This document shows positions 4,527-60,237 of a stretch of 64,000 nucleotides of DNA, one piece after another (the first letter of the stretch is position 1; every line of letters starts with the position of its first letter). This stretch comes from a bacterium (GTDB lineage Bacteria > Hydrothermota > DG-26 > JAUXAN01). The translations under genes were made by a program, and so were the position numbers. The notes beneath the pieces were generated by a model. That model was given only the letters and a program-made list of their open reading frames with translations, was not told where the DNA came from and made no database searches. The stretch lies in assembly GCA_030619885.1 (NCBI GenBank), contig JAUXAN010000001.1, forward strand, positions 11,474 through 75,473. The letters run 5' to 3'.

Positions 4527-7296
4527 CGAAAAGAAGATAAGATTGTATCTTTTTGGAGGTGTATTCGTACTCGTTGGGTTTTTCTACCTCATAACCTGTG
4601 CACCGACTGCATCTTTCTGGGATTGCGGCGAGTTTATAGGATGTGCTTATATCCTCGGTGTCCCACATCCACCAGGTACACCGTTGATGGTTCTTGTGGG
4701 CAGGCTCTTCTCATTTTTGCCGGTTTCTAAAGAGATAGCATTCAGGGTAAATCTATTTTCTGTCTTAACGGGCGCTCTCACATGTGCCTTCGTATATTAT
4801 ATTACAGTCAGACTGATCGGAATCTATCGAAAAAAGAGTGCACTCCCAGATTTGATATTGACCCACGCAGTTGGGATTGGTGCTGCACTTCTTCTGGCAT
4901 TTTCCGAAAGTCACTGGAGTAATTCAATAGAGACAGAGACATATTCCCCTGCTGCATTTTTCATAGGACTGGCTGCATACCTTACTTTTATATGGTATGA
5001 TAATGTGGGTAAGAAACATAATAAGAAGACGCTGTTGCTCATCGCATACCTCCTTGTTCTTTCCACAGGTATCTATCTTGCACCTATAGCTATTGCACCC
5101 GCTATTTTACTCTTTGTCATCATTGCAGACTGGAGGAGTCTACTCGATTCAAAGTTTATCATTGCGGCTATACTTCTGCTCGCTCTTGCACCTACGACCA
5201 ATCTCTATCTATTCATAAGGGCGCATCACGATCCCGGAATAAACGAATGCGACCCACGCACCCGTCAGGCGATCTACGATGTGTTGACGAGAAAACAGTA
5301 TGGTCCTATGAATATGCTACCCCGAAAAACACAGATGGAAACGGGTATGTCCTTAATCCCTGCATATATCGAACAGGTGAAACTCTACCTCCGATACCTC
5401 TCATGGCAGTTCGTACCCACCCAGATACAGACCAAACCTTTTAACTCATTTCCAATAGGGTGGAGATTTATCGTGATTCTCTTTTTTGCCGTTGGGATTT
5501 TAGGTATGTGGGTCTCCTATAAAAGCGACAAACGAACATTTGTGCTCATCTTTTTTATGTTTCTATTATTGAGTCTTGGCTTCGTCACCTATCTCAATAT
5601 GAGGTTTTCTCCATCGGACCCAAACCCTGCACATCAACCAAGGGAGGTGAGGGAGAGGGACTACTTCTTTCCCCTATCCCATATATTCTTAACTGTCTTC
5701 TATGGGATCGGTTTCTGGTATATATTGATGAGACTTGGAAGGTATTTCAACCATAGAAGGAAGTTGATCTATACATACACCTCATCGGCAGTCGTCATCC
5801 TAATATCTTTCTCTTTATGTGCAGTGCATTTCCATACACACGACAGACACGATGACTGGATACCATCCGACTATGGAGAGAATATGCTCAATTCCTGCGA
5901 TGATAACAGTATAGTCTTCACCAACGGCGATAACGATACATTCCCATTATGGTTCGTTCATGAGGTGAAAAAAGTCAAACCATCTGTTACCGTTGCCAAT
6001 TTATCCCTTTTAAATACAAACTGGTATATAAAGCAATTGAAACGGAGGGGTATACCAATCAGTTTCACAAACGATGAGATAGACAAGCTGAGACCTATCC
6101 CCGTGACAGAGAATGGTGAACCTCTCTTTCCTTTTATGAGATTTGGCAGACTGCTCTATGTGACAAGAAATGGTGAGGTAGTAGAACATGTGAAAAAGGA
6201 TAAGAAGGACTACTGTAAAATGAAGGATGGGAGCTTGTTGGAAGTTAAAACATTCCATGTTAAAGATTTTGCTGTGAGGGACATAATCGCCACGAATGCT
6301 GGGAAAGAATTCAAAGTAGATGAATATTTTGACTTAACGAGGTTCGTTGGTTTGAGAATGCCCGCTCTATACTTTGCACCCCCTGAAGAATTTATGGAAA
6401 GGGTGATAAAAGGTTATGAGGGGAAGATACCCGTCTATTTTGCGGTAACCTGTTCAAGAGAAAATTTAGGTGGGTTTGACCCTTATCTCCGGTTGGAGGG
6501 GATGGTCTATCGGCTGATTGGACACAAAAACGATAATTTTAACCTTGAGCGCACAGAAGAACTACTCTATAATGTATATAAATTCGAATCCGTCTTCAAC
6601 GATAAACTTTACAAGAACGCGAATACATTGAAATTGCTATCGAACTATGCTGCAGCCTACTTCAGACTTGGGCTCGAATACCGCAAACAGGGGAATTTGG
6701 ACAAGGCTATTGCGATGCTTGAAGAAGGTAAGCGGTTCAGACCATCTGAGATATTGCCCTTTGCCTATAATCTTTCCACCCTATACGCTGAGAAAGGAGA
6801 TTTTACAAAATCCATATCCTATCTAAAAGATGCGATTGAGAAAGATCCTAATAATATCTTTTTCTACAACCGTTTAGGTCTCATACACCAGCATACTGGA
6901 GATATTGAGAAGGCGAAGTATGTATTCAGAAAGGCGATTGAGGTCGTTCCGTCACATCCAGAAGCTTATGCAAATCTTCACTTTCTCTATAGTTCAATTA
7001 AGGATACAACTTCAGCACTGAAGATCATTCAGGAATGGTTTCTTCAAAATCCAAAAAACAGCGGTATATACGCCGCTCTCGCATCCCTCTATCAAATGCG
7101 AGGCAAGACTTCCATTGCAGAGAAGTATCTTCTGAAATCGCTGGAAGTGGATCCCAAAAATCCACGGAACTATGGGATTCTGTTCAACTTTTATAAGAAG
7201 GCAGGTAGAATTAAAGATGCCAAAGCCATTTTGGGAAAATGGCTCAAAATTCAACCAGAGGATAAGACCGCAAGCGATTTATTGAAAAGTTTATGA
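4519..7296 (+). CDS. polytopic membrane protein, DUF2723 / GT39 (PMT-like) glycosyltransferase-like N-domain with C-terminal TPR repeats
   Basis: There are more than 10 TM helices at the N-terminus, and the region FWDCGEFIGCAYILGVPHPPGTPL is typical of DUF2723. The C-terminal roughly 300 aa are TPR-like (e.g. AYFRLGLEYRKQGNLDKAIAMLEE). The start overlaps cdaA by 8 nt. Confidence 0.7.
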   Translation: MYNEKKIRLYLFGGVFVLVGFFYLITCAPTASFWDCGEFIGCAYILGVPHPPGTPLMVLVGRLFSFLPVSKEIAFRVNLFSVLTGALTCAFVYYITVRLIGIYRKKSALPDLILTHAVGIGAALLLAFSESHWSNSIETETYSPAAFFIGLAAYLTFIWYDNVGKKHNKKTLLLIAYLLVLSTGIYLAPIAIAPAILLFVIIADWRSLLDSKFIIAAILLLALAPTTNLYLFIRAHHDPGINECDPRTRQAIYDVLTRKQYGPMNMLPRKTQMETGMSLIPAYIEQVKLYLRYLSWQFVPTQIQTKPFNSFPIGWRFIVILFFAVGILGMWVSYKSDKRTFVLIFFMFLLLSLGFVTYLNMRFSPSDPNPAHQPREVRERDYFFPLSHIFLTVFYGIGFWYILMRLGRYFNHRRKLIYTYTSSAVVILISFSLCAVHFHTHDRHDDWIPSDYGENMLNSCDDNSIVFTNGDNDTFPLWFVHEVKKVKPSVTVANLSLLNTNWYIKQLKRRGIPISFTNDEIDKLRPIPVTENGEPLFPFMRFGRLLYVTRNGEVVEHVKKDKKDYCKMKDGSLLEVKTFHVKDFAVRDIIATNAGKEFKVDEYFDLTRFVGLRMPALYFAPPEEFMERVIKGYEGKIPVYFAVTCSRENLGGFDPYLRLEGMVYRLIGHKNDNFNLERTEELLYNVYKFESVFNDKLYKNANTLKLLSNYAAAYFRLGLEYRKQGNLDKAIAMLEEGKRFRPSEILPFAYNLSTLYAEKGDFTKSISYLKDAIEKDPNNIFFYNRLGLIHQHTGDIEKAKYVFRKAIEVVPSHPEAYANLHFLYSSIKDTTSALKIIQEWFLQNPKNSGIYAALASLYQMRGKTSIAEKYLLKSLEVDPKNPRNYGILFNFYKKAGRIKDAKAILGKWLKIQPEDKTASDLLKSL

Positions 7297-9365
7297 ATAG
7301 ATTTGCTAAATATTACGATACGGGTAAAGTCTTTGCTACGCTTGCCATTATCCTTTTTGAAGTAATACGAGCAGGTGTAAACCTTACTAATTGGTACTGG
7401 TCTCTGATCCTTGCAGCAGCGATCATACCAATCAGGAGATTCTCCATTCCCCTTGTAAAATATTCCTTTCTAACCTTTACATTCATAGTCTGCATATTTT
7501 CTTTTTTAGTTTTCGGTTTTCTTGAAGCAGGGCTGATCGTCCTGTTGGGGGTAACTGTAGCAGATACGATTTTTCTGCGTCGCGGGTTTAAAAGGGCGAT
7601 TGGGAATGCTACCAGTTTCACACTCAGCATTCTAATCTCTGGAATAGTATATAAACATATGAACGGGTACTTTGGTATACATTCTGTGGCGGCAGAAAAT
7701 GCACTACCATTAATCAGTTTTCTGATCTTGCTATTCGGACTCCTGCCCATTACATTCTGGCTCTCAGATATTTTGAGAAGGGGACTGAAATTGAAAGAAG
7801 TCGGATTCATATTTAAATGGGAGTTCATAATCTATCTCATCAGTACTTTGATTGCACTTTTTGCAATCGTGGCTATACACTCTTTCGGCATAGGTTCACT
7901 TCTAATATATATTCCAGTCGTTTTAATCTTCTTACTTTTTATGAGACCCGTTATCGACGAAAGCATAACGGCGAGGTCGTTGAAGACTATCATAGAACTG
8001 GAACGGACTATATCAACTGGTTTAAGTTTAGAAGAGATTATAGAGCGGATAAGGAAACTCTCGCTGGAATTAGTCGACTGGTCGTTGCTGCAGATAAATA
8101 AGGTTGATAGAAAAAAAGGAGAGACAGTTCTAATCTACGATTCTGATACCGGAATGCAGGATGGTTCACTCAGGGTTAAAATTGGGGAAGGAATTATAGG
8201 TGCATGTGTAGCACAAGGTGAACCCATTCTTATTAACGATGTGACTGCCGATAAAAGATATATCTGTTTGAAGGAAACGACCGGTTCGGAACTCACTATA
8301 CCATTGAAGTTTGAAAATGAGATAGTCGGCGTTTTAAATTTAGAATATAAACAGAAAAACAGTTTCTCGAAAAAGGACATTGAACATACTTCCATCTTTG
8401 CCGAACAACTTGCCCGTGCCATTAAAATAAATGAAACATTAGAACCATTGATGATTTCGAGTGAGAAACTTTCTGAAAGTGAAGGGAAACTTTCGGTTTC
8501 TATTCAACAATTGGATGCAACTTCAGATGAGATAACAGCGAATATACAGAAAATGTATGAGGATTTCAAAAAAGAGAAAACGGTCGAGCAACAGAGATTG
8601 ATTTTTTTTGAGAAGATATTCGACTTCTCTAAAAACCTTTCCAACTCGTCTATGCAAGTGAGGGAGCAGAGCAGAGATATAAGGAGATTTATTGAAGAAG
8701 ACAAAAAGAAGATAGAGTCCATACTTGATACACTGTCTGAAATTCAAAATTTCACAAAAAGAATCAGAGGGCTTGTGACAGAATTTCAGTTAGCACACAG
8801 AAAAGTTGAAGAGTTCGCTGAAGCCATAAGAAAGATTGCAGTTAAAACAAACTTTTTATCTTTTAACGCTTCATTGGAAGCAGCGAGGGCAGGAGAATCT
8901 GGACGTGGATTCACGCTTGTAGCAAATGAGATAAACAGGCTGGCTGAGGATTCAAGGGAATCGAGTTCAAATATCACCCACACGATTCAGGGAATAAGTA
9001 AGGAGATTGAAAACATAATAGCCGCCATCAAAGAAGTTGAGAAAAAGATAGGTAATGTTGCAGATATTTCTACTCCCACTATGCAGGCATTCAATGAGAT
9101 ATTAAAATCGGTGAACGAGACGATTCCACTCATTGAGAATAACGCTGCTCTTGCAAGGAATCATGTAGAAGGAGTTGAAACATCAGTGCGTCAAATGAGA
9201 CAGTCCATTGAGATGGTAGAGAGGAATGCGAAATCTGCAGAAGGTGTAGTGCATTCAATAAGCACACAGAACTTTTCAATAGAAGCTATAAGTGAGCACA
9301 CACGGGAACTGTCTGAAATATCAAAGGAATTGAAACGGGTAATTTCCGAATTTCGTATAGGATAA
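7293..9365 (+). CDS. methyl-accepting chemotaxis-like protein with N-terminal multi-TM region and GAF domain
   Basis: About 6 TM helices precede a GAF-like region (GIIGACVAQGEPILINDV...EIVGVLNLEY). An MCP signalling domain follows (FLSFNASLEAARAGESGRGFTLVANEINRLAEDS). The ATGA overlap with the upstream gene is 4 nt. Confidence 0.75.
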   Translation: MNRFAKYYDTGKVFATLAIILFEVIRAGVNLTNWYWSLILAAAIIPIRRFSIPLVKYSFLTFTFIVCIFSFLVFGFLEAGLIVLLGVTVADTIFLRRGFKRAIGNATSFTLSILISGIVYKHMNGYFGIHSVAAENALPLISFLILLFGLLPITFWLSDILRRGLKLKEVGFIFKWEFIIYLISTLIALFAIVAIHSFGIGSLLIYIPVVLIFLLFMRPVIDESITARSLKTIIELERTISTGLSLEEIIERIRKLSLELVDWSLLQINKVDRKKGETVLIYDSDTGMQDGSLRVKIGEGIIGACVAQGEPILINDVTADKRYICLKETTGSELTIPLKFENEIVGVLNLEYKQKNSFSKKDIEHTSIFAEQLARAIKINETLEPLMISSEKLSESEGKLSVSIQQLDATSDEITANIQKMYEDFKKEKTVEQQRLIFFEKIFDFSKNLSNSSMQVREQSRDIRRFIEEDKKKIESILDTLSEIQNFTKRIRGLVTEFQLAHRKVEEFAEAIRKIAVKTNFLSFNASLEAARAGESGRGFTLVANEINRLAEDSRESSSNITHTIQGISKEIENIIAAIKEVEKKIGNVADISTPTMQAFNEILKSVNETIPLIENNAALARNHVEGVETSVRQMRQSIEMVERNAKSAEGVVHSISTQNFSIEAISEHTRELSEISKELKRVISEFRIG

Positions 9366-10360: not shown

Positions 10361-11818
10361 ATGGCAGAAGTTTGGAGTGGTCGTTTAGAAAAGATTGGCG
10401 ATTGTAAATGGCTGCTGCCCAAGTCCTATAAATCTGGAATGAGGACAGATGGTCTCATCTTTGCCGATGAGGAGATGTTAAAACAAATTTGCAGCGACCG
10501 GGCGCCAGAGCAGGTTGCCAATGTTGCCTGCTTACCGGGTATAGTCGGAAGATCGATGGCGATGCCCGACATACATTGGGGATACGGTTTTTGCATAGGT
10601 GGTGTTGCTGGTTTCGATGTGAAAAATGGGATAGTATCACCAGGTGGAGTAGGATATGATATTAACTGTGGGGTGAGAATGTTGCGCACCGACTTGAGAT
10701 TAAAGGATATAGAGAATAAACTTTCTGAACTGATAAATGCCCTTTATGAGAATATTCCATGCGGTATTGGTTCAAAGGGAAAATTGAGATTTTCAGAGCA
10801 CGAGATCAGGGAGGTGTTGGTTGAAGGTGCACGCTGGGCACAGAAAAAGGGGCTTGGATGGAAAGAAGACATTCTCCATACGGAAGAAGAGGGAAGATTG
10901 GAAGGTGCTGACCCTGATAGGGTGAGTCGAAGGGCGATGGAGAGGGGGAGACCTCAACTCGGCTCTTTGGGTGCAGGTAACCATTTCTTGGAGATACAAA
11001 TCGTTGAAGAGATATACGAGAAAGAGGCTGCAAACATTTTGGGACTCGAGTCCGGGCAAATCACCGTTATGATTCATACAGGTTCAAGAGGGCTCGGCTA
11101 TCAGGTATGTGATGATTGGGTGAAGAGTCTGGTGAATGCATTGAGAAAATACCATATTGATGTCCCGGATAGGCAGCTTGCATGTGCACCGATAGACTCA
11201 AAAGAAGGTAAAGATTACTTCGCTGCTATGGCATGTGCTGCGAATTATGCATGGACGAATCGCCAGTTTATCGTCCACTGGGTGCGAGAGAGTTTCGAGC
11301 GCGTTCTGAAAAAAAGTGCGGAAACGCTCGGTATGAGACAGATTTATGATGTTGCACATAATATCGCCAAGTTTGAAGAACATACAGTAGACGGCAAAAA
11401 ATTGAAATTATGTATACACAGAAAAGGCGCTACGAGGGCATTTGGACCCGGCAGTCCATATATACCAGAAGATTACAGGTCTGTAGGTCAGCCTGTCTTG
11501 ATTCCTGGAGATATGGGGACAAACTCATATATCTTGCTCGGAACCGATAAGGCGATGTCAGAGACCTTTGGCTCTACCTGTCACGGTGCAGGTAGGGTGA
11601 TGTCGAGGCATAAGGCAATTAGTGTTACCGCTGGCAGGTACATAAAGGATGAACTGAAAGAAAAAGGCATACTCGTTAGGGCGAAGGAGGTAAAGACACT
11701 GAGAGAAGAGATGCCAGATGCCTACAAGGATGTGAACAAGGTCGTTGATATAGTGGATAGAGCAGGCATTTCAAAAAAGGTTGCAAAGCTAAGACCTGTG
11801 GGTGTTGTAAAGGGATGA
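10361..11818 (+). CDS. rtcB: RNA-splicing ligase RtcB
   Basis: RtcB motifs are present: GVGYDINCGVRM, GAGNHFLEIQ, HNIAKFE and STCHGAGRVMSR. An AGGGGGAAG Shine-Dalgarno site lies upstream. Confidence 0.9.
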   Translation: MAEVWSGRLEKIGDCKWLLPKSYKSGMRTDGLIFADEEMLKQICSDRAPEQVANVACLPGIVGRSMAMPDIHWGYGFCIGGVAGFDVKNGIVSPGGVGYDINCGVRMLRTDLRLKDIENKLSELINALYENIPCGIGSKGKLRFSEHEIREVLVEGARWAQKKGLGWKEDILHTEEEGRLEGADPDRVSRRAMERGRPQLGSLGAGNHFLEIQIVEEIYEKEAANILGLESGQITVMIHTGSRGLGYQVCDDWVKSLVNALRKYHIDVPDRQLACAPIDSKEGKDYFAAMACAANYAWTNRQFIVHWVRESFERVLKKSAETLGMRQIYDVAHNIAKFEEHTVDGKKLKLCIHRKGATRAFGPGSPYIPEDYRSVGQPVLIPGDMGTNSYILLGTDKAMSETFGSTCHGAGRVMSRHKAISVTAGRYIKDELKEKGILVRAKEVKTLREEMPDAYKDVNKVVDIVDRAGISKKVAKLRPVGVVKG

Positions 11819-19981: not shown

Positions 19982-20612
19982 TCATTGGACAGTAGGTTTT
20001 TTACGAATTACTGAATTTGTTTCATCAATTTCGAGATCTTCAAAAACTGTAGGAGCATGTTTCTTTAATATTTCGAGAATCTCTATTGCAATTTTCCGAA
20101 TTTCCCACTGTGCTTCAGGACTGCCTCGGAGCTCAGCAATATGACGCCATTCCCTGAAATTTGCAGTGACAACGATTTCGCTTTCAACTGCATTAGGCAG
20201 AACAAATCTTGCGTCTTGATTCTCAATTCCTAATCTTTGAAGCTCATGATAGGTTTTTTTTGAAATGCTCAATAAGATTGAGAAACATCTTATGTGCTTG
20301 TTTATTTCCTTTAATTGAGTCAGGTTCAACATACTCAAAATTGCTTTCATTAACGTACCGCTGAGACTGCTGAGTGTAGGAACAAAGTCTGTGTCTGACC
20401 AATTGATGTGTGAATGCTCTTGAGCCTCCTTTAATCCTAAAAGTTGCATAGGCATGTTCTAAGACGTAAAGGTGTCCACTTTTGATAAGCATTTTTATAA
20501 ATTTCTTTTCACTGCCTTTCTTCTGTTTTTCAAATGATAAATAAGCAGTCCTGCCAACATTTTCTATCAATTTTTCTGCATTTGGGGTAATAGAAAGCAA
20601 CTCTACTTTCAT
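19982..20612 (-). pseudogene. thyX: flavin-dependent thymidylate synthase ThyX, interrupted by a 1-nt frameshift in an A8 homopolymer (20254-20261)
   Basis: The N-terminal frame (20244..20612) carries the ThyX signature LVRHRLCSYTQQSQRY. The C-terminal frame (19982..20455) continues YHELQRLGIENQDARFVLPNA...AQWEIRKIA. The two frames switch at the T8/A8 run. Confidence 0.8.
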
Positions 20613-20621
20613 TTTAAAATC

Positions 20622-21509
20622 TCACAATTTGAATCTTTTCACTTCTTGAATTCCTTTACTTAACCACCCGCTGAATTTATCAGGAAACGAATAAACAACT
20701 TGAACATCTGGGTTTTCTTCACAAGCAAGGTACAGTCCGACTGTCTGAAGTTTAGTGTTTAGCGGTGATGTTATTATATTATAGTCGTGTGCATTCTCAT
20801 TAAAAATGCTCCTGAGTATCTGTACAGCTTTATGGGGATCATCCGCAGGTGCTTTTTTAATCTCCGCTCCGTAAATTGAATCGCTTAATTCCTTAACAGC
20901 TTTTCTGTTTCTCTCTAAGAAACTTGCATCGGTAGGCTCCTCCCCTTGAACTAGGATTACCTTGGACGGTTCTATTACTTTAAAAAGATACAGTGGTCTG
21001 TCAATCTCATATCCTATCAGAAGAATGAGCAGTTTTTCTTTATCTTTAGAAAATATGCCGCCGAAGAAAGGGATAGTAGAAAAACCTTTTGCGCCTTTCG
21101 ATATTTTAGGATTGTATTTTCCAGGGACTGTGTAAAATACGTCTAATGATTTGACGCAGTATTTCTTCCTGAGCAACCACATTAAAACAAGTAAATTTTG
21201 TCTGTTGAAGTTTGAAACATCCAAAAAGAACTTTGAGGATTTAATATCCAACTTCTTATCAAACACATACCGATTGAAGCCACGCACAATTTCAAATGGA
21301 TCATAGTATGAAGCTTTTAGAAATTGAAATTTTTTTGCTTGCAGAAACTTACTTGCGATCTCATTACGGATATTTACTACTCGTTGATCATTTTCAAATT
21401 CTTGGTTTATAAATAATATATGATCGTCAATTTTAAAATCCCATTTCTCTTTAAAAAAACCCAGGCCTCTTTCTTCAAGACCAATCATCGAGATAAATAT
21501 GTTGCTCAT
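20622..21509 (-). CDS. hypothetical protein (295 aa), third gene of the candidate defence module; no recognisable motifs
   Basis: The ORF starts with ATG 11 nt after the upstream stop. It lies in a tight operon with the NTPase and HD genes. No domain is identifiable by eye. Confidence 0.6.
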   Translation of the reverse strand: MSNIFISMIGLEERGLGFFKEKWDFKIDDHILFINQEFENDQRVVNIRNEIASKFLQAKKFQFLKASYYDPFEIVRGFNRYVFDKKLDIKSSKFFLDVSNFNRQNLLVLMWLLRKKYCVKSLDVFYTVPGKYNPKISKGAKGFSTIPFFGGIFSKDKEKLLILLIGYEIDRPLYLFKVIEPSKVILVQGEEPTDASFLERNRKAVKELSDSIYGAEIKKAPADDPHKAVQILRSIFNENAHDYNIITSPLNTKLQTVGLYLACEENPDVQVVYSFPDKFSGWLSKGIQEVKRFKL

Positions 21510-21520
21510 TTCTTCACTCT

Positions 21521-23401
21521 TTACATATCAAATAGAGGTAGTTGCTTTTCTTCTTTTTCAGCGATTTTTTGTCTTCTTTTAAACCAAGAAACGAATTTTT
21601 TTGGGTTGTCCAATGCGAGAAAAAGATGTTCCTGAGAAATTTCGATTCTGCCTTGGAATCCTGAAAGATCAAGTTTGTATCGCGGACACAATCTCTTATT
21701 TAGAATGAAACATTCAAGCATTTCATAACCCGATTTGCCGCGGTACCATTTTTTGTGAAAAAAGCATTCTCTCAGAGCTTTGTGCAGAATTCTTTCTAAT
21801 CGGGAATCTCTTAATGTCTCTTTTACTGAAAAAGAAATAATCCTTGGATACCGGCTGTTTTTGTTATCAAGCCTAATTTTAAAAGCCTGACCCAATGCTT
21901 CTATTAAATTGAAAAGTTCTTCCAGAAGTTTTCGTTCTTCAGATTCAGTTGCTCTTCTTCTGATGGGCTGCAGTATTTCTGTATCAATAAAGCTGTTTGA
22001 GTAGAATTTCACTGCATTCTTCTGCATTTCAAACGGAATAAATTCTATGTCTCTATTACTTATCTCGGAATCCTTTTGCCTATATTCAATAACCATATGA
22101 AAACAAGCATCCAAAAATGCTCGTGTGATTCCTGAAGAAAAATGCACAAGATTATCAAACCCTGTATAGCCGTATTCTGTTTTCTCCAAGAATTTTTGGA
22201 AAAATCTTGCTCTTGCATACTTATTGATGTAATTTTGCTTACTTCCTATCTTTTTGTCTTCCGGAAGCTTGTCATACTCGTCAGCCGTATATTGTATTGC
22301 CTTTTTCATTTTGTTTATTTCGGTTAGGTTTTCTGGAAGAAACTCTACAATATTATTGACTTTCCATTGTGCTATTTCAAGCCTCCTATTTGCTATTTGC
22401 TTGATTCTGCGGTAATAATTTTCTTGGTTATTCGTATATAGGCTGTCCAAATTCACGACATAGTAATCATGTATTTCTTCAATTGCTCTGCCATTAATGT
22501 CGACATCTGTACTATATGATTCGTGGCACGCGGAGACTTTTGTACACACAAGATTCTGAACTCTCTGAGAAATAAAGGTATTGATGATTTGCTGATGAAA
22601 CTTAATAATAGGCTCGATTCCTTCAATTTCAGTAACCTCATCGAAAAGCAAAAAGAATGGTGTGTCGGCCACACCTATAAGCTTGCGCAGTTCATCGAAA
22701 AAGGTATAAAGAAAGCTCCCACTTTGGCAAGATGGATCTGTAAAGTTCCCTGTATATTTTAGGCGATTGCTGGGAGTACCATAGTTTGATTGATAATCCT
22801 GAATGGAAGAAAGAGTTTTATTTTTTTCTTTTTTCATTATGCCTTTCAGTGTTTTTAGATTCCTTTCCTTTTCAGGAATGTCATCATATATCTTTTTCTT
22901 ATCCAATGCTGAAATTACTTTACTCACAGCTTCTTTTTCTTTATCAGATATTATTTTCTGCTTGAGCTGCCCCAGAATAGTATTTAATGTCCAGTCCGCA
23001 ATATCCATGATGAAATAGTGCATAATTATTCTTTTAGAAACATTAAGAGGAACCTCCTTGTCAGCTAATAATTTACAAAATTCTGTTTTCGTGTAATCAC
23101 CTGTATTGTAGCCTATACATATACCAATGAAGGAATCTGGCTGATTGAAGAATTTCTCCAGACTGCCGTATTCTATGACTTGGCAGGCAGGTTCAAGAAA
23201 CTTGAACAACATTGTCTTCCCAGAACCCCTACTGCCAAATACAAATGTATGTGTGTAAGCGGTCAGCGCGTTGTATTCTGTATACTCCTTGACGAAGAGG
23301 TCGACGATGTTCTTTGGACTCAACTGCTGGTCTGGATAGAAATGCTGAAATACGTTCTCTTTAATCTTCGTCTCAAATTTATCCTGTTTTTCTTCATTCA
23401 T
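21521..23401 (-). CDS. P-loop NTPase (626 aa), ABC/AAA_21-like spacing of Walker A and B; candidate defence ATPase
   Basis: Walker A FGSRGSGKTM lies near residue 55. Walker B FFLLFDEVTE lies near residue 248, followed by a possible H-loop histidine. The C-terminal ~370 aa are uncharacterised. The ATG directly abuts the upstream TAA (TAAATG). Confidence 0.7.
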   Translation of the reverse strand: MNEEKQDKFETKIKENVFQHFYPDQQLSPKNIVDLFVKEYTEYNALTAYTHTFVFGSRGSGKTMLFKFLEPACQVIEYGSLEKFFNQPDSFIGICIGYNTGDYTKTEFCKLLADKEVPLNVSKRIIMHYFIMDIADWTLNTILGQLKQKIISDKEKEAVSKVISALDKKKIYDDIPEKERNLKTLKGIMKKEKNKTLSSIQDYQSNYGTPSNRLKYTGNFTDPSCQSGSFLYTFFDELRKLIGVADTPFFLLFDEVTEIEGIEPIIKFHQQIINTFISQRVQNLVCTKVSACHESYSTDVDINGRAIEEIHDYYVVNLDSLYTNNQENYYRRIKQIANRRLEIAQWKVNNIVEFLPENLTEINKMKKAIQYTADEYDKLPEDKKIGSKQNYINKYARARFFQKFLEKTEYGYTGFDNLVHFSSGITRAFLDACFHMVIEYRQKDSEISNRDIEFIPFEMQKNAVKFYSNSFIDTEILQPIRRRATESEERKLLEELFNLIEALGQAFKIRLDNKNSRYPRIISFSVKETLRDSRLERILHKALRECFFHKKWYRGKSGYEMLECFILNKRLCPRYKLDLSGFQGRIEISQEHLFLALDNPKKFVSWFKRRQKIAEKEEKQLPLFDM

Positions 23402-24394
23402 TTATGTCCTCCTCGGCCTATATTTCTCAAGTGTTGTTCTAACACCATTATCGCCAAAAAATTCATTATATTCATTGCGGTCATCGAAAACGAAACTAAT
23501 CTTATCTATCGCGCTCTCTCCATCGTAAATGTCTATGCATAAATCAATACCGTCGATCATACGGAAATAGAAGGTATCTGTTAAGAAGTTATTGCAGTAT
23601 TTTCTCTCTTGATTGATTTTGTCTATACGTCTTACATATTCTTCAATTCCTTTGGTTGTCATAGAATTCTTCCCCCAATCAGCCCAAATCTCATTTTTCT
23701 CGAATTTCGCAGATATCTTGATTTTTAGAGACGTCTCGGTTCTACCTCCATAAGTGCGTTGGTTATACAAGAGGCCGATGGATTGATTCATTATACAAAA
23801 CTTCCAGTAAGCTTCATATTGCTTGGGAACGTTAGAAATCATTCTTTCTTCAACTCGTCTGGAGTCTTCTTCGAGTTCATCGGAAATCCTGAGGAGAGCA
23901 GCTAAAAACCGTGGGTATAGAATTTTGTTATGAACAAGCACCTTTTCTCTATCGATTGCGAGGCTGATTGCATCTCTACCAGAGTGAGCTTCTGCAATTT
24001 TCACAATCCATTCTGCATAGTATTCATCGTAAAGGAAGTTTTTCACTGGGTCAAAGATATACTTTATGTTTTTCTCATGTCCTACACGCTGACCGTAGAT
24101 ATTCCCTATATCATGCCATAGAGAAGCATTCATCAAAAGATTTAGATTTGTTAGATCTATGGTTCTTTCTTTGGATACATTTTCGAGTGGGAGATGGGGC
24201 TTAAGCAAATCGTATAGTTTCTCCAATATCCGGGTCACGTGTCCGATACCATGATCAGTTCTGTACGGCAATGCATCGCGTGTAAAAGGAAAATAGGATT
24301 TCTCTAATCTTGACCTAACAGTTGCGTATACGTGCCAATGTTCAGGGGCTTCGGATTCACACATTCTTCTAAATTCACCATCTAAGTCATTCAT
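23402..24394 (-). CDS. HD-domain metal-dependent phosphohydrolase (330 aa) with uncharacterised C-terminal half
   Basis: The HD signature H..H/HD/H/D is present: HGIGHVTRILE, LWHDIGN, EAHSG and RISDELE. The start overlaps the upstream methyltransferase gene by 8 nt. Confidence 0.75.
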   Translation of the reverse strand: MNDLDGEFRRMCESEAPEHWHVYATVRSRLEKSYFPFTRDALPYRTDHGIGHVTRILEKLYDLLKPHLPLENVSKERTIDLTNLNLLMNASLWHDIGNIYGQRVGHEKNIKYIFDPVKNFLYDEYYAEWIVKIAEAHSGRDAISLAIDREKVLVHNKILYPRFLAALLRISDELEEDSRRVEERMISNVPKQYEAYWKFCIMNQSIGLLYNQRTYGGRTETSLKIKISAKFEKNEIWADWGKNSMTTKGIEEYVRRIDKINQERKYCNNFLTDTFYFRMIDGIDLCIDIYDGESAIDKISFVFDDRNEYNEFFGDNGVRTTLEKYRPRRT

Positions 24395-25583
24395 ACTGAT
24401 CCCTCAGTGAGTTCAAAATCCCTACTGCAATTCTCTGCCCTAAGATCGGCGGCACAGCATTTGCTACTTGTTGTTGTTGGTAACCAAGTGGACCGTAGAA
24501 AATATAGCAGTCAGGAAAAGATTGAAGCCGTGCTGCTTCTCTTACAGACAAACCTCTGTCTTGGACAGGATGGATAAGCATGCACTTCCTAAAATTACTT
24601 ATAACTATTGAAGGCTCGTCCCACTTTAGCCTCTTATATATTCCGCTGTGGCAGTTATTTTTGTTTTTATAGTTCTTCATTAGATAGCATGGAATATTTT
24701 CCCAGTTTCCACCCTGCGGGATAAATCGATATCGTTTGAGCACAAGATTAGTATTCTTGCTTACAAGGTTATTCCCGCAGTATGAGTTCCCCCAATTGGC
24801 ACGCATTCTTTTCTGGTAATCAGTTAAAGAGCCGTTAGACTTTGCATATCTCATAAGGTCCGTTTGATTTCCATTTTCAAGCACCGGAAGATCTGAAATC
24901 GCTTCCTTAACTGTAATGCAAGATCTTTTCCCATCACCGTGAGTTGCATTTGAGAAGATGTAGTCCGCACCAATTCTGTTTCCTATTATAAAGATTCTGC
25001 GCCGAATTTGAGGAATTCCGTAGTCAGCGGCATTTAATATTTTAGATTTGCAAAAGTATCCCACATTTTCTAACTCCCCAATTATCGCATTTTTTACCAA
25101 GCCGCCTTTAAAGCTATTCATGCCAGCAACATTTTCCAGCAACAACCACTTAGGCATTAAACCCTTTATTAATCTAATAAATTCTTTATACAAGTGATTT
25201 TCAGAATTGTCAAGAGTACGAGTCCGCATGTTTGAAGTTGAAAACCCTTGACACGGCAGACCACCCATTACAATATCAATTTTTCCTCTCTTAACTCTCA
25301 GTATCCTTAATATTTCTAAGGGATTCAACTCTGCAATGTCTTTCACTAAAACCATCTTTTTTTTGCTTCTCCTATTTTTTATGTAAGTTTCAGCACTGCA
25401 GAGCTCTTTTTCTACAGCAAGTAAAACTTGGAATCCTGCTTCTTCAAAACCTAAAGAAAGCCCTCCTGCTCCAGCACAGATATCAACTGCAGTTGGTTTG
25501 TCCTTTCCCTTTTTCACCTTGGCTTCTCCTTTTCTTTTGAGTGAGTATCCGCATAAGACTTGCATATTGAAATAATAGGGCAT
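24387..25583 (-). CDS. DNA (cytosine-5)-methyltransferase
   Basis: Motif I is DICAGAGGLS, motif IV GGLPCQGFS, motif VI ENV, motif VIII QIRRRIFIIG and motif X REAARLQSFPD. The true start may be the ATG 6 codons downstream. The gene overlaps the 3' end of the upstream glycosylase gene. Confidence 0.9.
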   Translation of the reverse strand: MPYYFNMQVLCGYSLKRKGEAKVKKGKDKPTAVDICAGAGGLSLGFEEAGFQVLLAVEKELCSAETYIKNRRSKKKMVLVKDIAELNPLEILRILRVKRGKIDIVMGGLPCQGFSTSNMRTRTLDNSENHLYKEFIRLIKGLMPKWLLLENVAGMNSFKGGLVKNAIIGELENVGYFCKSKILNAADYGIPQIRRRIFIIGNRIGADYIFSNATHGDGKRSCITVKEAISDLPVLENGNQTDLMRYAKSNGSLTDYQKRMRANWGNSYCGNNLVSKNTNLVLKRYRFIPQGGNWENIPCYLMKNYKNKNNCHSGIYKRLKWDEPSIVISNFRKCMLIHPVQDRGLSVREAARLQSFPDCYIFYGPLGYQQQQVANAVPPILGQRIAVGILNSLRDQYE

Positions 25584-26212
25584 TCACTACATAATGGATG
25601 TCTTTTTTTACAGATTAGTGCACTGAAGTCTAACAGTGCCCAGTTAAACTTTTTGGGATTTCTTTGGGGTACAAGTTTTGATGCGGCATCCCACAATAAC
25701 TTGTCATTTCTTGGTCGATTCTTCTCAGACTTGATGCCAAACACCCTATCAAGCACCCTTATAACATTTGTATCTACAATAGGCACCCTTTTATTGAAAC
25801 CAAAGCATAAGGTTGCTGAGGCAATGTATTTTCCTATTCCTTTGAGTCTTAAAAGTGCTTTTTCCTCATCTGGTATACTCCCTTTATACTGGTTGAGTAT
25901 CTGTGAACCCATTTCTGTTAATCTCGATGCTTTATAATGCAAACCTAATGGTCTAATTGCTTCCCTCACTGCAGGAACATCCGCATCTGAAAGCTTTTCT
26001 GGAGTTGGACAGTAGGTCGTCAGTTTTTTATAAACTGGTTGTACTTTTTCTACATTCGTTTTCTGAAGGAGCACTTCAGCAAGCAAAATCTTGAATGGAT
26101 CTTTTTCTCTTCTCCAAGGAAAGTCTCTGTTGTTATTTTTATACCACATAAAAAGTTTCTTCTGGAATTCCCTTATCTTATTTAACTCGACTTTTGTTTC
26201 TATCTTAAGCAT
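25514..26212 (-). CDS. HhH-GPD DNA glycosylase with 4Fe-4S cluster (EndoIII/MutY family; Mig-like T:G mismatch glycosylase paired with the C5-MTase)
   Basis: The helix-hairpin-helix LLRLKGIGKYIASATL, the VDTNVIRVLDR element and the C-terminal Cys4 cluster CKKRHPLCSECPIISIC are present. Confidence 0.8.
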   Translation of the reverse strand: MLKIETKVELNKIREFQKKLFMWYKNNNRDFPWRREKDPFKILLAEVLLQKTNVEKVQPVYKKLTTYCPTPEKLSDADVPAVREAIRPLGLHYKASRLTEMGSQILNQYKGSIPDEEKALLRLKGIGKYIASATLCFGFNKRVPIVDTNVIRVLDRVFGIKSEKNRPRNDKLLWDAASKLVPQRNPKKFNWALLDFSALICKKRHPLCSECPIISICKSYADTHSKEKEKPR

Positions 26213-26219
26213 TATTCAG

Positions 26220-26468
26220 TCAGTGTTTTCCCATCCCTAAAATCCAATCCCTCTTCACTACCCCATTTCTTATAGCAGAGGAGCGACTTATTGAATAGGA
26301 ACGGATTATGTTGGCAAATGTAAAGTTTTTTTTGAAGCCTATCCTTTCCCCCTGAAGCATTAAAGACTTTGGCGTAGACACTAAAATCCTTTGATAATAA
26401 CTTCCATTTATCTCAATTTTGCTTCCGGGGTTCAAAACCTTGTGCGTATCCTTTGATATTGTTTCCAT
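26220..26468 (-). CDS. small hypothetical protein (82 aa)
   Basis: It is first in the operon and ends 8 nt before the glycosylase start. No motif is recognised. Confidence 0.4.
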   Translation of the reverse strand: METISKDTHKVLNPGSKIEINGSYYQRILVSTPKSLMLQGERIGFKKNFTFANIIRSYSISRSSAIRNGVVKRDWILGMGKH

Positions 26469-26637
26469 ATCCTTGAAAAGCTTATAAATAGTATAAACTT
26501 TTTTTTACTTTTGTCAAGTATTTTTTGCGAAAAAAATTCGGTTGCGCATATTCTGATCTGATTTCAGAAATTCAAATTTAACAATAGTTTAGATACAAGT
26601 GCGGAACTTGGTTTTTTTGAAGCAATAAAATCAATCA

Positions 26638-29496
26638 TTATCTTTCTATAATTTTGATTTCTTCCTCTGTCAAGCCATAGAGTTTATAGGCGAGGGAGTC
26701 TATTTGCTGATCAAGGAGGTCTATCTGAGTCTTATACAACTTTTTGTCCTGCTCCAATCTGGCAGAATGATATTTTTTCTGCAACTCCAACATTTGCTCC
26801 ACCATTGCCACCAAATCATCGTGCATCTTCTTCTCGTGAGGATTGGAAAAATCAATGGTGTGAATGGGGAGTTGCTCAATCTGATAGCCTTTAATCTTGG
26901 GAAAGGTTTGCTTAGTATCACTGCTCGTTTTTAGAAAATAGAAAGCAATAAGTGAAGAGGTAAGTATCCCAAGCAGGTATTTGGGTGAGTATACTTCACT
27001 TGTTTTAGGGAGGAGCAAATAGATTGACTGGTCTGCATAGAAACCTTCTTGATCAAGGGAACAATAGATTCTTTTGCCCATTACTTGACGAATCAATAAT
27101 TTTGGAAAAATCTGAAAAATCCATTCTTCCCTGAATGCCTGACTACTATACTTACTTTCCAGTTTTTTATCATAACAAACCCACAGATTATTCCAGTTAA
27201 TATGGAAAGGCACTATATTTCTACCAAGAAGAAATTTATGGTAACGATTATCTTCGTAATCACTTGAACATAACTCCTTACGAATTTTCATTCCATTTCG
27301 TACTTTAACCAAATTAGAAAGCTTTGTACTTACTGTTGAAATCTTCTGGATAAGAGCAATCGCCTGAGTATCAATGGCTGTATTGAAAGTAAAACTATTT
27401 TGAGAGGTCAGATACTTTTGAGGCAGGATATTGTGTGGAGTTGTGACTTGTTGTTGCTGTGCTGCCAAGCACATGCCTATTGCAAAATTATGATTATGTC
27501 TTATGGTTTGGCTTTTTTCTCTTTGGACTACAATTATATTTGTGTCCACAGCAACATTTTTGAAAATACCTTCTTTTAAATCAACAATTATTTCTATGCA
27601 GGTATTCTCTACTATGAACTGCCGAATCTTTTCGCTGTCTTTATTGGTTAATATGCCATTAGGAATGATGAAGGAAAGACGCCCACTGTCGCGGAGTAAT
27701 TTAATCCCTTTCTCTAAGAAAAGATAATAAGTATCAAGAAGACGACTTGCTGAAAAGAAATGCTGCATATAATAGGTCTTGTCATTTTGTGGAATATTAC
27801 GACTTCTTACATACGGTGGATTTCCTATTACTACATCAAATCCACCGTTCTGAAAAATGTTAGGGAAGGCAGTTTTCCAGTCAAAAACATTAATGCGTCT
27901 CATCTCGGCTTCATCAAAAAGAGTTGTTTGCTGTGTGTCGTAAAAATCGGGACTAATCAGGGAGTTTCCACATTTGATATTGTTTGATAGATCGGGCAAG
28001 AGCTTCAACTGAGTATATCTGAATAGCTGTCTGGTTGACTCCTCAGTTTCTCCCTCTAAAAGTTTGAGAAGGAGAGAAAGTTTAGATACCTCCACTGCCT
28101 GAGTATCTATGTCCACTCCAAATATATTATTGAGAAGAATTCGCTGTTTCTCTGCAATAGTTAATTGAAAACTATCTTTTTCTGTTTGTATAATTTGACC
28201 TTTCTTTAATGCCTTCTTGCGATTTTCATTTTTGGAATACCAGTCCAGGTGATAGTTCAAGAGACATTGATAGGCACTGAGAAGAAAACTTCCTGAGCCG
28301 CAGGCAGGGTCAAGGAGCTTTATCTTATCAATCTGTTTTGGCGTTTTGCCTTTTATAATTTTTCCGACAGTGTTTTTAACAATATAGTCAACGATGTATT
28401 TGGGGGTATAATACACACCTCCCGCCTTTTTTACTTCAGGCTTTTCTTCTACCTTCACCTGATGAGCAGGGGTTAGACGAATGGTCTTGCCCAGAAATTG
28501 TTCGTAGATGTTTCCAAGAATCTCTACATCTAAAACAGAAAATTCATAAGGGGATTCTGGATAGTATACGGATTTTAGAATTTCCTTTATTATTTCATCG
28601 TCAATGGAAAGAACTGGGGTAATCTCGTCTTTTTCAAAATCAAACAATCCGCTGTTATATTTTTTGTCGGAGTGAAGGAATATCTCCATCAATCTTCTGT
28701 ATGTGTTGGTTCCGTTTAGGAGTATCTTAAGTTTCCCGTAGTCCTCAATCTGTCTGGCTTCTGCTATACGCAGGAATATAATTCTATCAACAATTTTCTG
28801 GACAGCAAAATTCAATTCATACAAGGACAAACTCTTATTCCGAAGGGCGATATTCTTTGCAAGTTTCTCCCTCCACCTATCAATAAGTTTCAAAAATTCT
28901 TTATCTACCTCTGATGTGCCCCTTTTATTCTTGGTTGACTCTATATATCGGTCAAAACTGCCTATTAGAATGCCCTCTTTTGAGAATGTATCATATATGA
29001 AATCAAAATTTTCGAGATAATCTTTATATCCACAGTAGAAAATGCGGACACAGGAAGCCAAATCCTTTGCTGTGGGTTTAATTCTTGTGTCATACACGGA
29101 GAATTCCTCAAAGTCTGTAAGAATAGAGAGGGGTAATTTGGCAGTGTAGGCATACCGCCTTAACTGGTATGCAGGCGATACTTCGGACTTGAGGACAATA
29201 GATGGTCTTTTTGCCTCCACGAAGAACTTTCGTATCCCACCGATACGGAAGGAGTAATCGGGCGCCTTATGCTTGCCTGTAATAATAACCTTTGCCTCTC
29301 TTACAACCTCACGATACTGCTCGGCATAACCCTGTTTGTTAGCAACATCCCAGCCCAGGCTTTCAAAGAATGGGTCTATAAAATCGGCACGGGTATTTGC
29401 CTCATCGTAATCCCGCCTTTTGTATTGAGAGATATTTTCTCCAAACCTCTGTATCAACTTTTTAATCTGTCCTTTTGCTTCTATTTTCTTGTCCAT
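26638..29496 (-). CDS. Type IIG/IIL restriction-modification enzyme (MmeI-like fused endonuclease + N6-adenine methyltransferase + TRD)
   Basis: The N-terminus has ANTRADFIDPFFESLGW and PDYSF...FVEAKR (a PD-ExK endonuclease). The MTase has motif I LDPACGSGSFLL and motif IV VIGNPPYV. At 952 aa it is comparable to MmeI-family enzymes. Confidence 0.85.
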   Translation of the reverse strand: MDKKIEAKGQIKKLIQRFGENISQYKRRDYDEANTRADFIDPFFESLGWDVANKQGYAEQYREVVREAKVIITGKHKAPDYSFRIGGIRKFFVEAKRPSIVLKSEVSPAYQLRRYAYTAKLPLSILTDFEEFSVYDTRIKPTAKDLASCVRIFYCGYKDYLENFDFIYDTFSKEGILIGSFDRYIESTKNKRGTSEVDKEFLKLIDRWREKLAKNIALRNKSLSLYELNFAVQKIVDRIIFLRIAEARQIEDYGKLKILLNGTNTYRRLMEIFLHSDKKYNSGLFDFEKDEITPVLSIDDEIIKEILKSVYYPESPYEFSVLDVEILGNIYEQFLGKTIRLTPAHQVKVEEKPEVKKAGGVYYTPKYIVDYIVKNTVGKIIKGKTPKQIDKIKLLDPACGSGSFLLSAYQCLLNYHLDWYSKNENRKKALKKGQIIQTEKDSFQLTIAEKQRILLNNIFGVDIDTQAVEVSKLSLLLKLLEGETEESTRQLFRYTQLKLLPDLSNNIKCGNSLISPDFYDTQQTTLFDEAEMRRINVFDWKTAFPNIFQNGGFDVVIGNPPYVRSRNIPQNDKTYYMQHFFSASRLLDTYYLFLEKGIKLLRDSGRLSFIIPNGILTNKDSEKIRQFIVENTCIEIIVDLKEGIFKNVAVDTNIIVVQREKSQTIRHNHNFAIGMCLAAQQQQVTTPHNILPQKYLTSQNSFTFNTAIDTQAIALIQKISTVSTKLSNLVKVRNGMKIRKELCSSDYEDNRYHKFLLGRNIVPFHINWNNLWVCYDKKLESKYSSQAFREEWIFQIFPKLLIRQVMGKRIYCSLDQEGFYADQSIYLLLPKTSEVYSPKYLLGILTSSLIAFYFLKTSSDTKQTFPKIKGYQIEQLPIHTIDFSNPHEKKMHDDLVAMVEQMLELQKKYHSARLEQDKKLYKTQIDLLDQQIDSLAYKLYGLTEEEIKIIER

Positions 29497-46954: not shown

Positions 46955-47029
<75 letters not shown>

Positions 47030-60024: not shown

Positions 60025-60181
60025 CCACAGATTCCACAGATTAGTGCAGATTTCATAAACCGAAGCAAAGGAGAAAGATATTGGGGTCAAATCTTAACAA
60101 AATTGAGCTACTACGAAAATTTTAAATTGAGATTGACCCTAATGGAATGCATGGTCTTAAGGATTTTTAATCTCTACTATT

Positions 60182-60237
60182 TGTCACAGTAGATGTCACA
60201 GTATTGTCACAGTAAAATGTCACAGTAATTCATAGTG
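60182..60237 (+). repeat. iteron-like array: 4 perfect + 1 degenerate copies of TGTCACAGTA at 11-13 bp spacing
   Basis: Perfect copies start at 60182, 60194, 60205 and 60218. A degenerate TTCATAGTG copy is at 60229. Confidence 0.8.

Follow-up and report, generated by a model that had tools for sequence, protein, structure and literature searches.

The combination of a C5-cytosine methylase with repair of deaminated 5-methylcytosine is a familiar pairing, represented by Dcm-Vsr and M.MthTI-Mig. The exchange of effectors on a single NTPase scaffold is characteristic of immune or conflict systems, and such swappable N-terminal effectors are carried by the STAND, Avs and NLR-like NTPases. The CARF nucleases Can1, Can2 and Card1 of type III CRISPR systems are activated by cyclic oligoadenylate, and SAVED sensors occur in CBASS. 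Elements related to these systems are found together in an operon within a 64-kb stretch of DNA from a bacterium of the Hydrothermota (contig JAUXAN010000001.1, positions 11,474 to 75,473), referred to below as the window; coordinates of open reading frames (ORFs) are window positions. The operon encodes an HD-domain protein, an ORC/Cdc6-like AAA+ ATPase and a tandem-CARF protein next to a C5-cytosine DNA methyltransferase, and this gene set recurs as a conserved module in 37 non-redundant loci. The module is tentatively interpreted as an ATP-dependent, methylation-gated immune system with a nucleotide-sensing regulator, a reading to which a probability of about 0.45 is given.

Composition, spread and setting of the module

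Loci were collected by exact look-up and by scanning one genome per species, plasmids and viral contigs with alignments, and were annotated with hidden Markov models (HMMs) built from the alignments of this analysis. A scan of genome contigs with single proteins found no relative; the alignment-based scan succeeded. The ATPase and the CARF protein are present in all 37 loci, the C5-methylase in 35, the HD protein (separate or fused) in 33, the thymidylate synthase ThyX in 20 and a HhH-GPD glycosylase in nine. The CARF gene lies directly downstream of the ATPase gene in 37 of 37 loci. The order HD-ATPase-CARF is constant, with the methylase on either side, and recurrence of this gene order is far beyond chance. 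Loci without HD or methylase are either cut by a contig end (L014, L022 and L026) or carry another effector (L044 and L045); of the four lacking HD, two are such cuts and two have calcineurin-like or caspase fusions.

Homologues of all three core proteins come from the same contigs, and the proteins co-evolve. Sequence identity of the HD and CARF proteins tracks that of the ATPase with Pearson coefficients of 0.93 and 0.94, respectively; the values are 0.56 for the methylase and 0.37 for ThyX (Spearman 0.03). An all-against-all comparison of neighbours revealed no other recurrent family besides integrases and Vsr. An earlier interpretation of the window from its letters and ORFs (the sequence-only reading) had proposed that the three genes and the methylase form one defence module. 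This core stood, being inherited as one module; the boundaries drawn were incomplete, since the T:G repair gene and ThyX had been missed.

The spread of the module is patchy and covers more than 12 phyla and several plasmids. Hosts include Ignavibacteria, Actinomycetes, Planctomycetota, Dehalococcoidia, Armatimonadota, Verrucomicrobiota and Thermodesulfovibrionales, as well as Acidobacteriota, Lachnospiraceae/Ruminococcus, Bacteroidales, Rhodobacterales, Rhizobiaceae, Trueperaceae and Syntrophales. The ATPase family is large, with 2276 relatives at E <= 1e-3 and 362 at 1e-30 in an HMM scan of 1.84 billion cluster representatives. Relatives of the module are found beside a Type ISP restriction-modification (RM) system, three integrases with a TraG/VirD4-like gene, helicase-PLD and UvrD-PDDEXK genes, AbiEii, and Mrr; on a conjugative Agrobacterium plasmid the module stands beside a second Dcm-Vsr system. 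Such contexts are defence-like or mobile-element-like, in keeping with the defence role first proposed from the window.

The same contexts could suggest that the module maintains or replicates a mobile element, the ATPase being an ORC-like initiator or loader and the methylase-HD pair an addiction module. Its presence on plasmids and next to integrases agrees with this, as do ORC, Cdc6, MuB and TnsC among the fold relatives of the ATPase (see below). However, the Agrobacterium plasmid encodes a RepC of its own at a distance of a few kb, the flanks differ among loci with no conserved element backbone, and replication initiators are not characterized by TIR or caspase fusions or by a CARF partner. 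In viral contigs, the module is also rare (four loci in 2.9 million). Maintenance of a mobile element is thus very improbable. In isolated phage genomes only one truncated fragment was found, and PHROGs contained no matches for the trio.

In the window, the operon extends upstream of the methylase to a HhH-GPD glycosylase and downstream of the trio to a frameshifted ThyX gene. The genes are as follows, together with one neighbour outside the conserved module:

26638-29496, minus strand: Type IIG restriction-modification enzyme, neighbour outside the conserved module (PADLOC REase_MTase_IIG, 5.1e-208)
25514-26212, minus strand: HhH-GPD (MutY/Mig-like) DNA glycosylase with a 4Fe-4S loop (Pfam, NCBIfam and PADLOC matches)
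24387-25583, minus strand: C5-cytosine DNA methyltransferase of a DNMT1-like subfamily, probable start GTG at 25517 (Pfam, PADLOC and solved structures)
23402-24394, minus strand: HD-CE family metal-dependent phosphohydrolase, 330 amino acids (aa), predicted effector (nuclease or phosphoesterase; Pfam PF24391)
21521-23401, minus strand: ORC/Cdc6-like AAA+ ATPase, 626 aa, predicted DNA-binding sensor or switch (Pfam PF24389 and predicted structure)
20622-21509, minus strand: stand-alone tandem-CARF protein, 295 aa, predicted ligand sensor or regulator (PADLOC CARF6 and fold)
19982-20612, minus strand: ThyX, flavin-dependent thymidylate synthase split by a +1 frameshift, recurrent accessory gene (Pfam Thy1)

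The trio lies downstream of the methylase ORF, and its coordinates and junctions are exactly those given by the sequence-only reading. The methylase and HD genes overlap by 8 nucleotides (nt), as read from the sequence ...TATGAATGA; the HD and ATPase genes abut at TAAATG, and a gap of 11 nt separates the ATPase and CARF genes. The G+C content at about 20-32 kb is 0.34-0.38 versus 0.41-0.44 in the flanks, and the module together with the Type IIG enzyme constitutes a low-G+C defence island of about 9.5 kb. The Type IIG gene, situated directly upstream, is intact, with Pfam matches to Eco57I, N6_Mtase, TaqI_C, MmeI_Mtase and HSDR_N, and consists of a HSDR_N/MmeI_N nuclease, an Eco57I/N6 methylase and a TaqI_C specificity domain.

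Between the Type IIG and glycosylase genes lies an ORF of 82 aa (26220-26468, minus strand) with no family match; it may be spurious, and no gene is called at the equivalent place in L001-L007. Upstream of this ORF lies the site that most resembles a promoter in the region (TTGACA-16-TATACT, 26490-26517). The scan for promoters and terminators gave a result no better than chance. Off the island, housekeeping or repair genes were observed: a UvrD-type helicase with a C-terminal PD-(D/E)XK nuclease (72-2747, plus strand), AddA-like and probably cut at the window start, and the RNA ligase RtcB (10361-11818, plus strand). An intergenic short tandem repeat at 60181-60228, with about four copies of the 12-nt unit TGTCACAGTAAA, bears no relation to the module.

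The ATPase, its predicted effectors and the CARF protein

The ATPase matches Pfam PF24389 (ORC-CDC6-like) over almost the whole profile (positions 9-570 of 571) with 218.7 bits at a cut-off of 27 (E 2.1e-64), and the same family was found in 72 of 72 ATPase homologues. An identical-sequence look-up of the window protein returned no record. Walker A (GSRGSGKT, residue 56) and Walker B (LFDEVTE, residue 252) were both present as the sequence-only reading had described, at a spacing of 196 residues, and their residues are invariant among the homologues. An AlphaFold2 model built from 45 homologues reached a mean predicted local distance difference test (pLDDT) score of 90.5. The model has the AAA+ fold of the ORC/Cdc6 initiator and loader group; its fold relatives are archaeal AAA+ proteins, Cdc6, ORC, MuB and TnsC, as well as BrxC of BREX. 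A helical insertion of about 140 residues (about 104-241) separates beta2 (92-97) from beta3 (249-254), and the insertion of the initiator clade sits at the same place. A helix/beta-hairpin element near the C-terminus of the model is read as a putative winged helix.

The sequence-only reading had assigned the ATPase to the ABC/AAA_21 type of PtuA and GajA. It had accordingly compared the module with Septu and Gabija: a methylase-coupled ATPase acting with an HD nuclease in place of the HNH effector. Only two features agree with this analogy, namely the long distance between the Walker motifs and the general fact that a P-loop ATPase occurs together with a metal-dependent hydrolase. That distance is due to the insertion between beta2 and beta3. 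The characters of the ABC/AAA_21 type, such as an ABC fold with a signature motif, were not found in the ATPase, and the best 60 structural matches of the model contain no ABC, SMC or OLD protein. Pfam places it with ORC-CDC6-like and not with AAA_15 or AAA_21, and no PADLOC Septu or Gabija model matches the ATPase or HD protein at E <= 0.1. The analogy was therefore rejected on HMM and fold evidence and is extremely improbable; the linkage with a methylase was borne out.

The HD protein matches Pfam PF24391 (HD-CE) with 49.4 bits at a cut-off of 27 (E 6.7e-13). The motifs recognized earlier are in place: HGIGH at residue 48, WHDIG at 93 and ISDELE at 170. Residues H48, H52, H94, D95, H106, H137, D172 and E173 are invariant in 43 homologues with identity down to about 20%. 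As the metal ligands are invariant, the protein is probably an active metal-dependent phosphohydrolase. Searches of the HD profile against PDB gave marginal matches only, to the PPX/GppA HD domain (0.025) and class-1 phosphodiesterases (0.4-0.8). In one relative (P0189, locus L043), the HD domain is fused to the N-terminus of the ATPase. This natural fusion argues that the two proteins act as a complex.

Other N-terminal domains occupy the same position in sister ATPases, namely a caspase (Peptidase_C14; P0217), a calcineurin-like phosphoesterase (Metallophos; P0254, P0260 and P0276) and a TIR domain (P0264). Some relatives bear N-terminal domains of about 200 aa with no family match. The loci of fusion variants that were examined retain the CARF gene downstream, and most retain the C5-methylase. 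The HD-ATPase fusion of L043 is preceded by HhH-GPD and methylase genes and followed by CARF and ThyX. L044 has the order methylase, calcineurin-ATPase, CARF; in L051, an ATPase with an unassigned N-terminal domain is followed by CARF and methylase. L045 consists of a caspase-ATPase, CARF and ThyX and lacks the C5-methylase; after ThyX, an N6/N4 methylase and a LAGLIDADG endonuclease gene (5412-7353) were observed instead. A calcineurin variant, L052, is flanked by a protein with a Mrr-type nuclease domain and a DUF4365-TPR protein (1-1194 and 5118-7040), which places this variant in a defence-island context as well.

The third protein, in which no motif had been recognized earlier, turned out to have a recognizable tandem-CARF fold. 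It matches ten PADLOC CARF6 models (best 2.4e-38), and its structural model (pLDDT 93.4) contains two Rossmann-like domains. Structural matches include Can2, Card1, Cam1, Csm6, Csa3, a ring nuclease and SAVED domains. The halves align with each other (hhalign E 6.5e-4), and their invariant loops are equivalent: MIGLEER corresponds to LIGYEIDR, and DVSNFNRQN to TSPLNTKLQ. The Rossmann-like fold and conserved loops after beta1 and beta4 are those of the CARF superfamily. No effector domain was detected within the 295 aa, and the predicted structure is that of a stand-alone, sensor-type tandem CARF. Ligand binding is predicted from loop conservation and fold similarity. The characters of a type III CRISPR ancillary CARF effector were not found. 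The window contains neither a CRISPR array nor a Cas10-like protein, and cas families are not among the conserved neighbours of the module.

The variety of effectors and the CARF fold could also point to the chief rival of methylation-gated immunity, abortive infection: the ATPase and CARF protein would form a switch that senses an infection cue, for example a nucleotide signal, and then releases a cell-damaging effector, without methylation as the discriminator. The HD protein would then act on deoxynucleoside triphosphates (dNTPs), nucleic acids or signalling nucleotides, its place being taken elsewhere by the caspase, TIR or calcineurin-like domain. The methylase, T:G repair and ThyX would prevent auto-activation, condition nucleotide pools or serve as a guarded target. 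This agrees with the fusion of TIR and caspase domains to the same ATPase family, with a CARF/SAVED fold typical of signal-activated suicide effectors, and with the weak HD-CE matches to PPX/GppA and phosphodiesterase-type HD domains. The ThyX linkage, which extends to the caspase variant lacking the C5-methylase, is accommodated as well. However, a C5-methylase with a conserved target-recognition region in nearly every locus is hard to explain without self-marking. Moreover, no signal-producing cyclase is conserved nearby, although the lack of a local signal synthase can also be counted in favour of the switch, and the ATPase belongs to a DNA-binding AAA+ group. An abortive-infection switch is therefore considered a rather doubtful alternative.

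Methylase, T:G repair and ThyX

The methylase is confirmed by Pfam DNA_methylase (2.3e-60) and PADLOC MTase_II (1.1e-110). Among solved structures, eukaryotic DNMT1 matches best (1.9e-38) and outranks M.HaeIII and M.HhaI. Across the 35 loci with this enzyme, the target-recognition region is conserved about equally with the catalytic core, which suggests one specificity common to the module methylases. Dinucleotide and palindrome/k-mer statistics of the window revealed no methylase target; most 4-mer palindromes are depleted.

The glycosylase matches Pfam HhH-GPD (1.4e-19), NCBIfam mutY (4.9e-55, below cut-off) and the PADLOC REase_II 'nicking endonuclease' model (4.7e-45), and its function is probably T:G or U:G mismatch repair. 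In most relatives possessing it, glycosylase and methylase form a single protein of 569-593 aa with the glycosylase N-terminal; L043 has separate genes. The window genes are also separate, the two halves being in frames 2 and 1 (tblastn). They share a GTGA stop/start overlap at 25514-25517, where the GTG (25517-25515) is preceded by AGGAG 8 nt upstream. This arrangement looks like gene fission or fusion with translational coupling. The T:G mismatch endonuclease Vsr occurs in at least five loci, all without the HhH-GPD fusion; Vsr genes were recorded in L014 (4896-5384), L016, L020, L025, L035 and L041 (9856-10251). T:G repair thus recurs in the module as two non-homologous forms, HhH-GPD and Vsr.

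ThyX directly adjoins a module gene in 20 of the 37 loci, with a gap of at most 198 nt and usually below 50 nt. The probability of such adjacency by chance is about 1e-30 even with a generous background of 1%. The placement varies: the gene is on either strand and follows the CARF gene, follows the methylase or lies between the methylase and HD genes. The linked ThyX proteins fall into at least two subfamilies, with lengths of about 210 and about 300 aa. In the window, each half of the split gene matches Pfam Thy1 (3.6e-32 and 9.4e-25). A single surplus A in the A8 run at 20254-20261 causes the frameshift. Once one A is deleted, the halves read through as a ThyX of 209 aa that is collinear with the intact ThyX of L001 and bears the RHRx7S motif in the form RHRLCSYTQQS. 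Either the gene has recently become a pseudogene, or the assembly is wrong in the homopolymer.

A second, intact ThyX gene was found at 47553-49010 (minus strand), near tRNA-Val (46955-47029). Its product of 485 aa contains two Thy1 repeats and probably serves as housekeeping thymidylate synthase. The ThyX of the module is thus an extra copy and not the only thymidylate synthase of the cell. A further observation concerns L001, the closest relative of the window locus, where a dCTP-deaminase-like gene (8366-9172, minus strand; Pfam DCD, weak dUTPase) is located two genes downstream of ThyX. The possibility that the linked ThyX is a host housekeeping gene beside an insertion was examined and rejected: the gene travels with the module in differing flanks, belongs to differing subfamilies and occurs on plasmids, and the window holds the other intact ThyX.

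A housekeeping role may still be supposed for the module as a whole. Dcm, ThyX and T:G repair would then form a pyrimidine C5-methyl module, with thymidylate and dNTP pools regulated by the ATPase and CARF protein and the HD protein serving as nucleotidase or dNTPase. HD families include dNTPases and 5'-nucleotidases, and the adjacency of ThyX and the dCTP-deaminase-like gene of L001 are in line with this possibility. However, the spread is patchy and horizontal, including plasmids and sites beside RM and Abi genes, and effector swaps to caspase and TIR are ill-suited to metabolism. The second intact ThyX and the frameshifted module copy indicate that the module does not supply the thymidylate of the cell. 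A metabolic module is therefore improbable.

Proposed mode of action and comparison with known systems

In the methylation-gated immune system proposed here, the methylase would mark the DNA of the host, as its near-obligatory presence suggests. The AAA+ ATPase may bind to unmarked DNA, or assemble or polymerize on it, in line with its fold kinship to ORC, Cdc6, MuB, TnsC and BrxC. Its assembly would switch on the attached effector, the HD-ATPase fusions showing that the two are physically coupled. That the HD protein is the effector is suggested by its replacement with calcineurin-like phosphoesterase, caspase or TIR domains in sister proteins. The tandem CARF could bind a nucleotide-type ligand in a pseudo-dimer cleft similar to that of Can1 and SAVED proteins and could gate or amplify activation; both ligand and effect are predicted. 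The T:G repair gene would limit mutations arising from 5-methylcytosine deamination, by the logic of Dcm-Vsr and M.MthTI-Mig. ThyX has no assigned role in this model.

Several findings weigh against this model. A simple restriction scheme leaves no room for the strong ThyX linkage. Since DNA is not what caspase and TIR effectors act on, methyl-directed restriction cannot be the output in those variants; the sole caspase locus lacks the C5-methylase, an N6_N4 methylase being located 480 nt downstream. The marginal PDB matches of HD-CE are not to the HD nucleases of Cas3 or Cas10. No synthase of a CARF ligand is conserved near the module or was found in the 64-kb window. The window copy itself may be partly decayed, given the ThyX frameshift, or affected by an assembly error.

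A further reading is a new immune family in which the ATPase reads methylation, the CARF protein reads a nucleotide signal of neither CRISPR nor CBASS origin, an interchangeable effector is fired and ThyX, recruited repeatedly and independently, is a working part. ThyX could then condition a thymidylate-related ligand pool or be a guarded or decoy target of phage pyrimidine takeover. Such a family is conceivable and is held to be rather unlikely.

Should the module be an immune system, one operon would unite three principles that are mostly investigated separately: methylation self-marking, known from RM and BREX; a switch of the AAA+/STAND-like kind, the suicide or nuclease effectors of which can be exchanged; and a nucleotide sensor of the CARF/SAVED type. 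Nucleotide sensing would proceed without any known signal synthase, and CARF domains would respond to a wider range of ligands than thought. A bacterial ORC/Cdc6-type protein would serve to recognize non-self DNA alongside a methylase resembling DNMT1 and a glycosylase for T:G mismatches, a pairing that recalls eukaryotic 5-methylcytosine maintenance and repair. The strong, convergent linkage of ThyX points to an unrecognized connection between thymidylate metabolism and immunity. Cultivable Agrobacterium, Rhizobium, Yoonia and Spirosoma carry the module on plasmids, which makes it directly testable; examples are the modules of Agrobacterium salinitolerans pDG3-1c (KHC17_RS25220-25240) and Rhizobium leguminosarum WSM2304 (NC_011368, 580-582 kb).

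The gene set is unlike that of described systems, as had been noticed from the window. The HD protein and ATPase have no match among 5027 PADLOC (v2) models, none of the three proteins matches a NCBIfam model above cut-off, and PDB sequence searches with them gave nothing useful. RefSeq labels all three core genes 'hypothetical protein' on plasmids of cultured bacteria (Agrobacterium and Yoonia). No description of the module was found in the literature searched, which included work on conflict systems, CARF/WYL and EVE; earlier cataloguing work on the component families may have noted the neighbourhood. The families themselves are already catalogued (Pfam ORC-CDC6-like, Pfam HD-CE and PADLOC CARF6), and only the system is uncharacterized.

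Compared with Septu (PtuAB) and Gabija (GajAB), only the generic pairing of ATPase and hydrolase is shared. Their ATPases are of the ABC/OLD kind, whereas that of the module is AAA+ and initiator-like, and the HNH, TOPRIM and UvrD partners and any HMM match are absent. MuB and TnsC are target-DNA AAA+ ATPases with transposase partners, which the module lacks; in its ATPase, the helical insertion and the C-terminal part are much larger. In BREX, which comprises the PglX methylase, the BrxC/PglY ATPase and the PglZ phosphatase, the methylase is N6-adenine-specific rather than C5-cytosine-specific. The module is devoid of PglZ, BrxA, BrxB and BrxL, the PADLOC PglX models match only the neighbouring Type IIG enzyme, and no BREX model matches the HD protein or ATPase. 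The ATPase fold is kin to BrxC; the CARF partner and ThyX are not known in BREX.

Unlike Can1, Can2, Card1 and the SAVED sensors, the module CARF has no fused effector and is partnered with an AAA+ ATPase, and cas10, CRISPR arrays and CD-NTases are absent from the window and the conserved neighbourhood. STAND, Avs and NLR-like NTPases differ from the module ATPase, the best matches of which are ORC/Cdc6 and archaeal AAA+ proteins; it has no C-terminal repeat sensor, and its obligatory partners are a methylase and a CARF subunit encoded separately. Dcm-Vsr and M.MthTI-Mig, belonging to Type II RM, share with the module the C5-methylase and T:G repair enzyme (HhH-GPD in nine loci and Vsr in at least five), and the HD/AAA+/CARF trio stands in place of a conventional restriction endonuclease. 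In 35 of the 37 loci a methylase is linked to the trio, and its target-recognition region is conserved; to this extent, the module may be RM-like. The module is not rated as categorically new; it would join the RM-like, NTPase-effector and CARF-sensing kinds of system.

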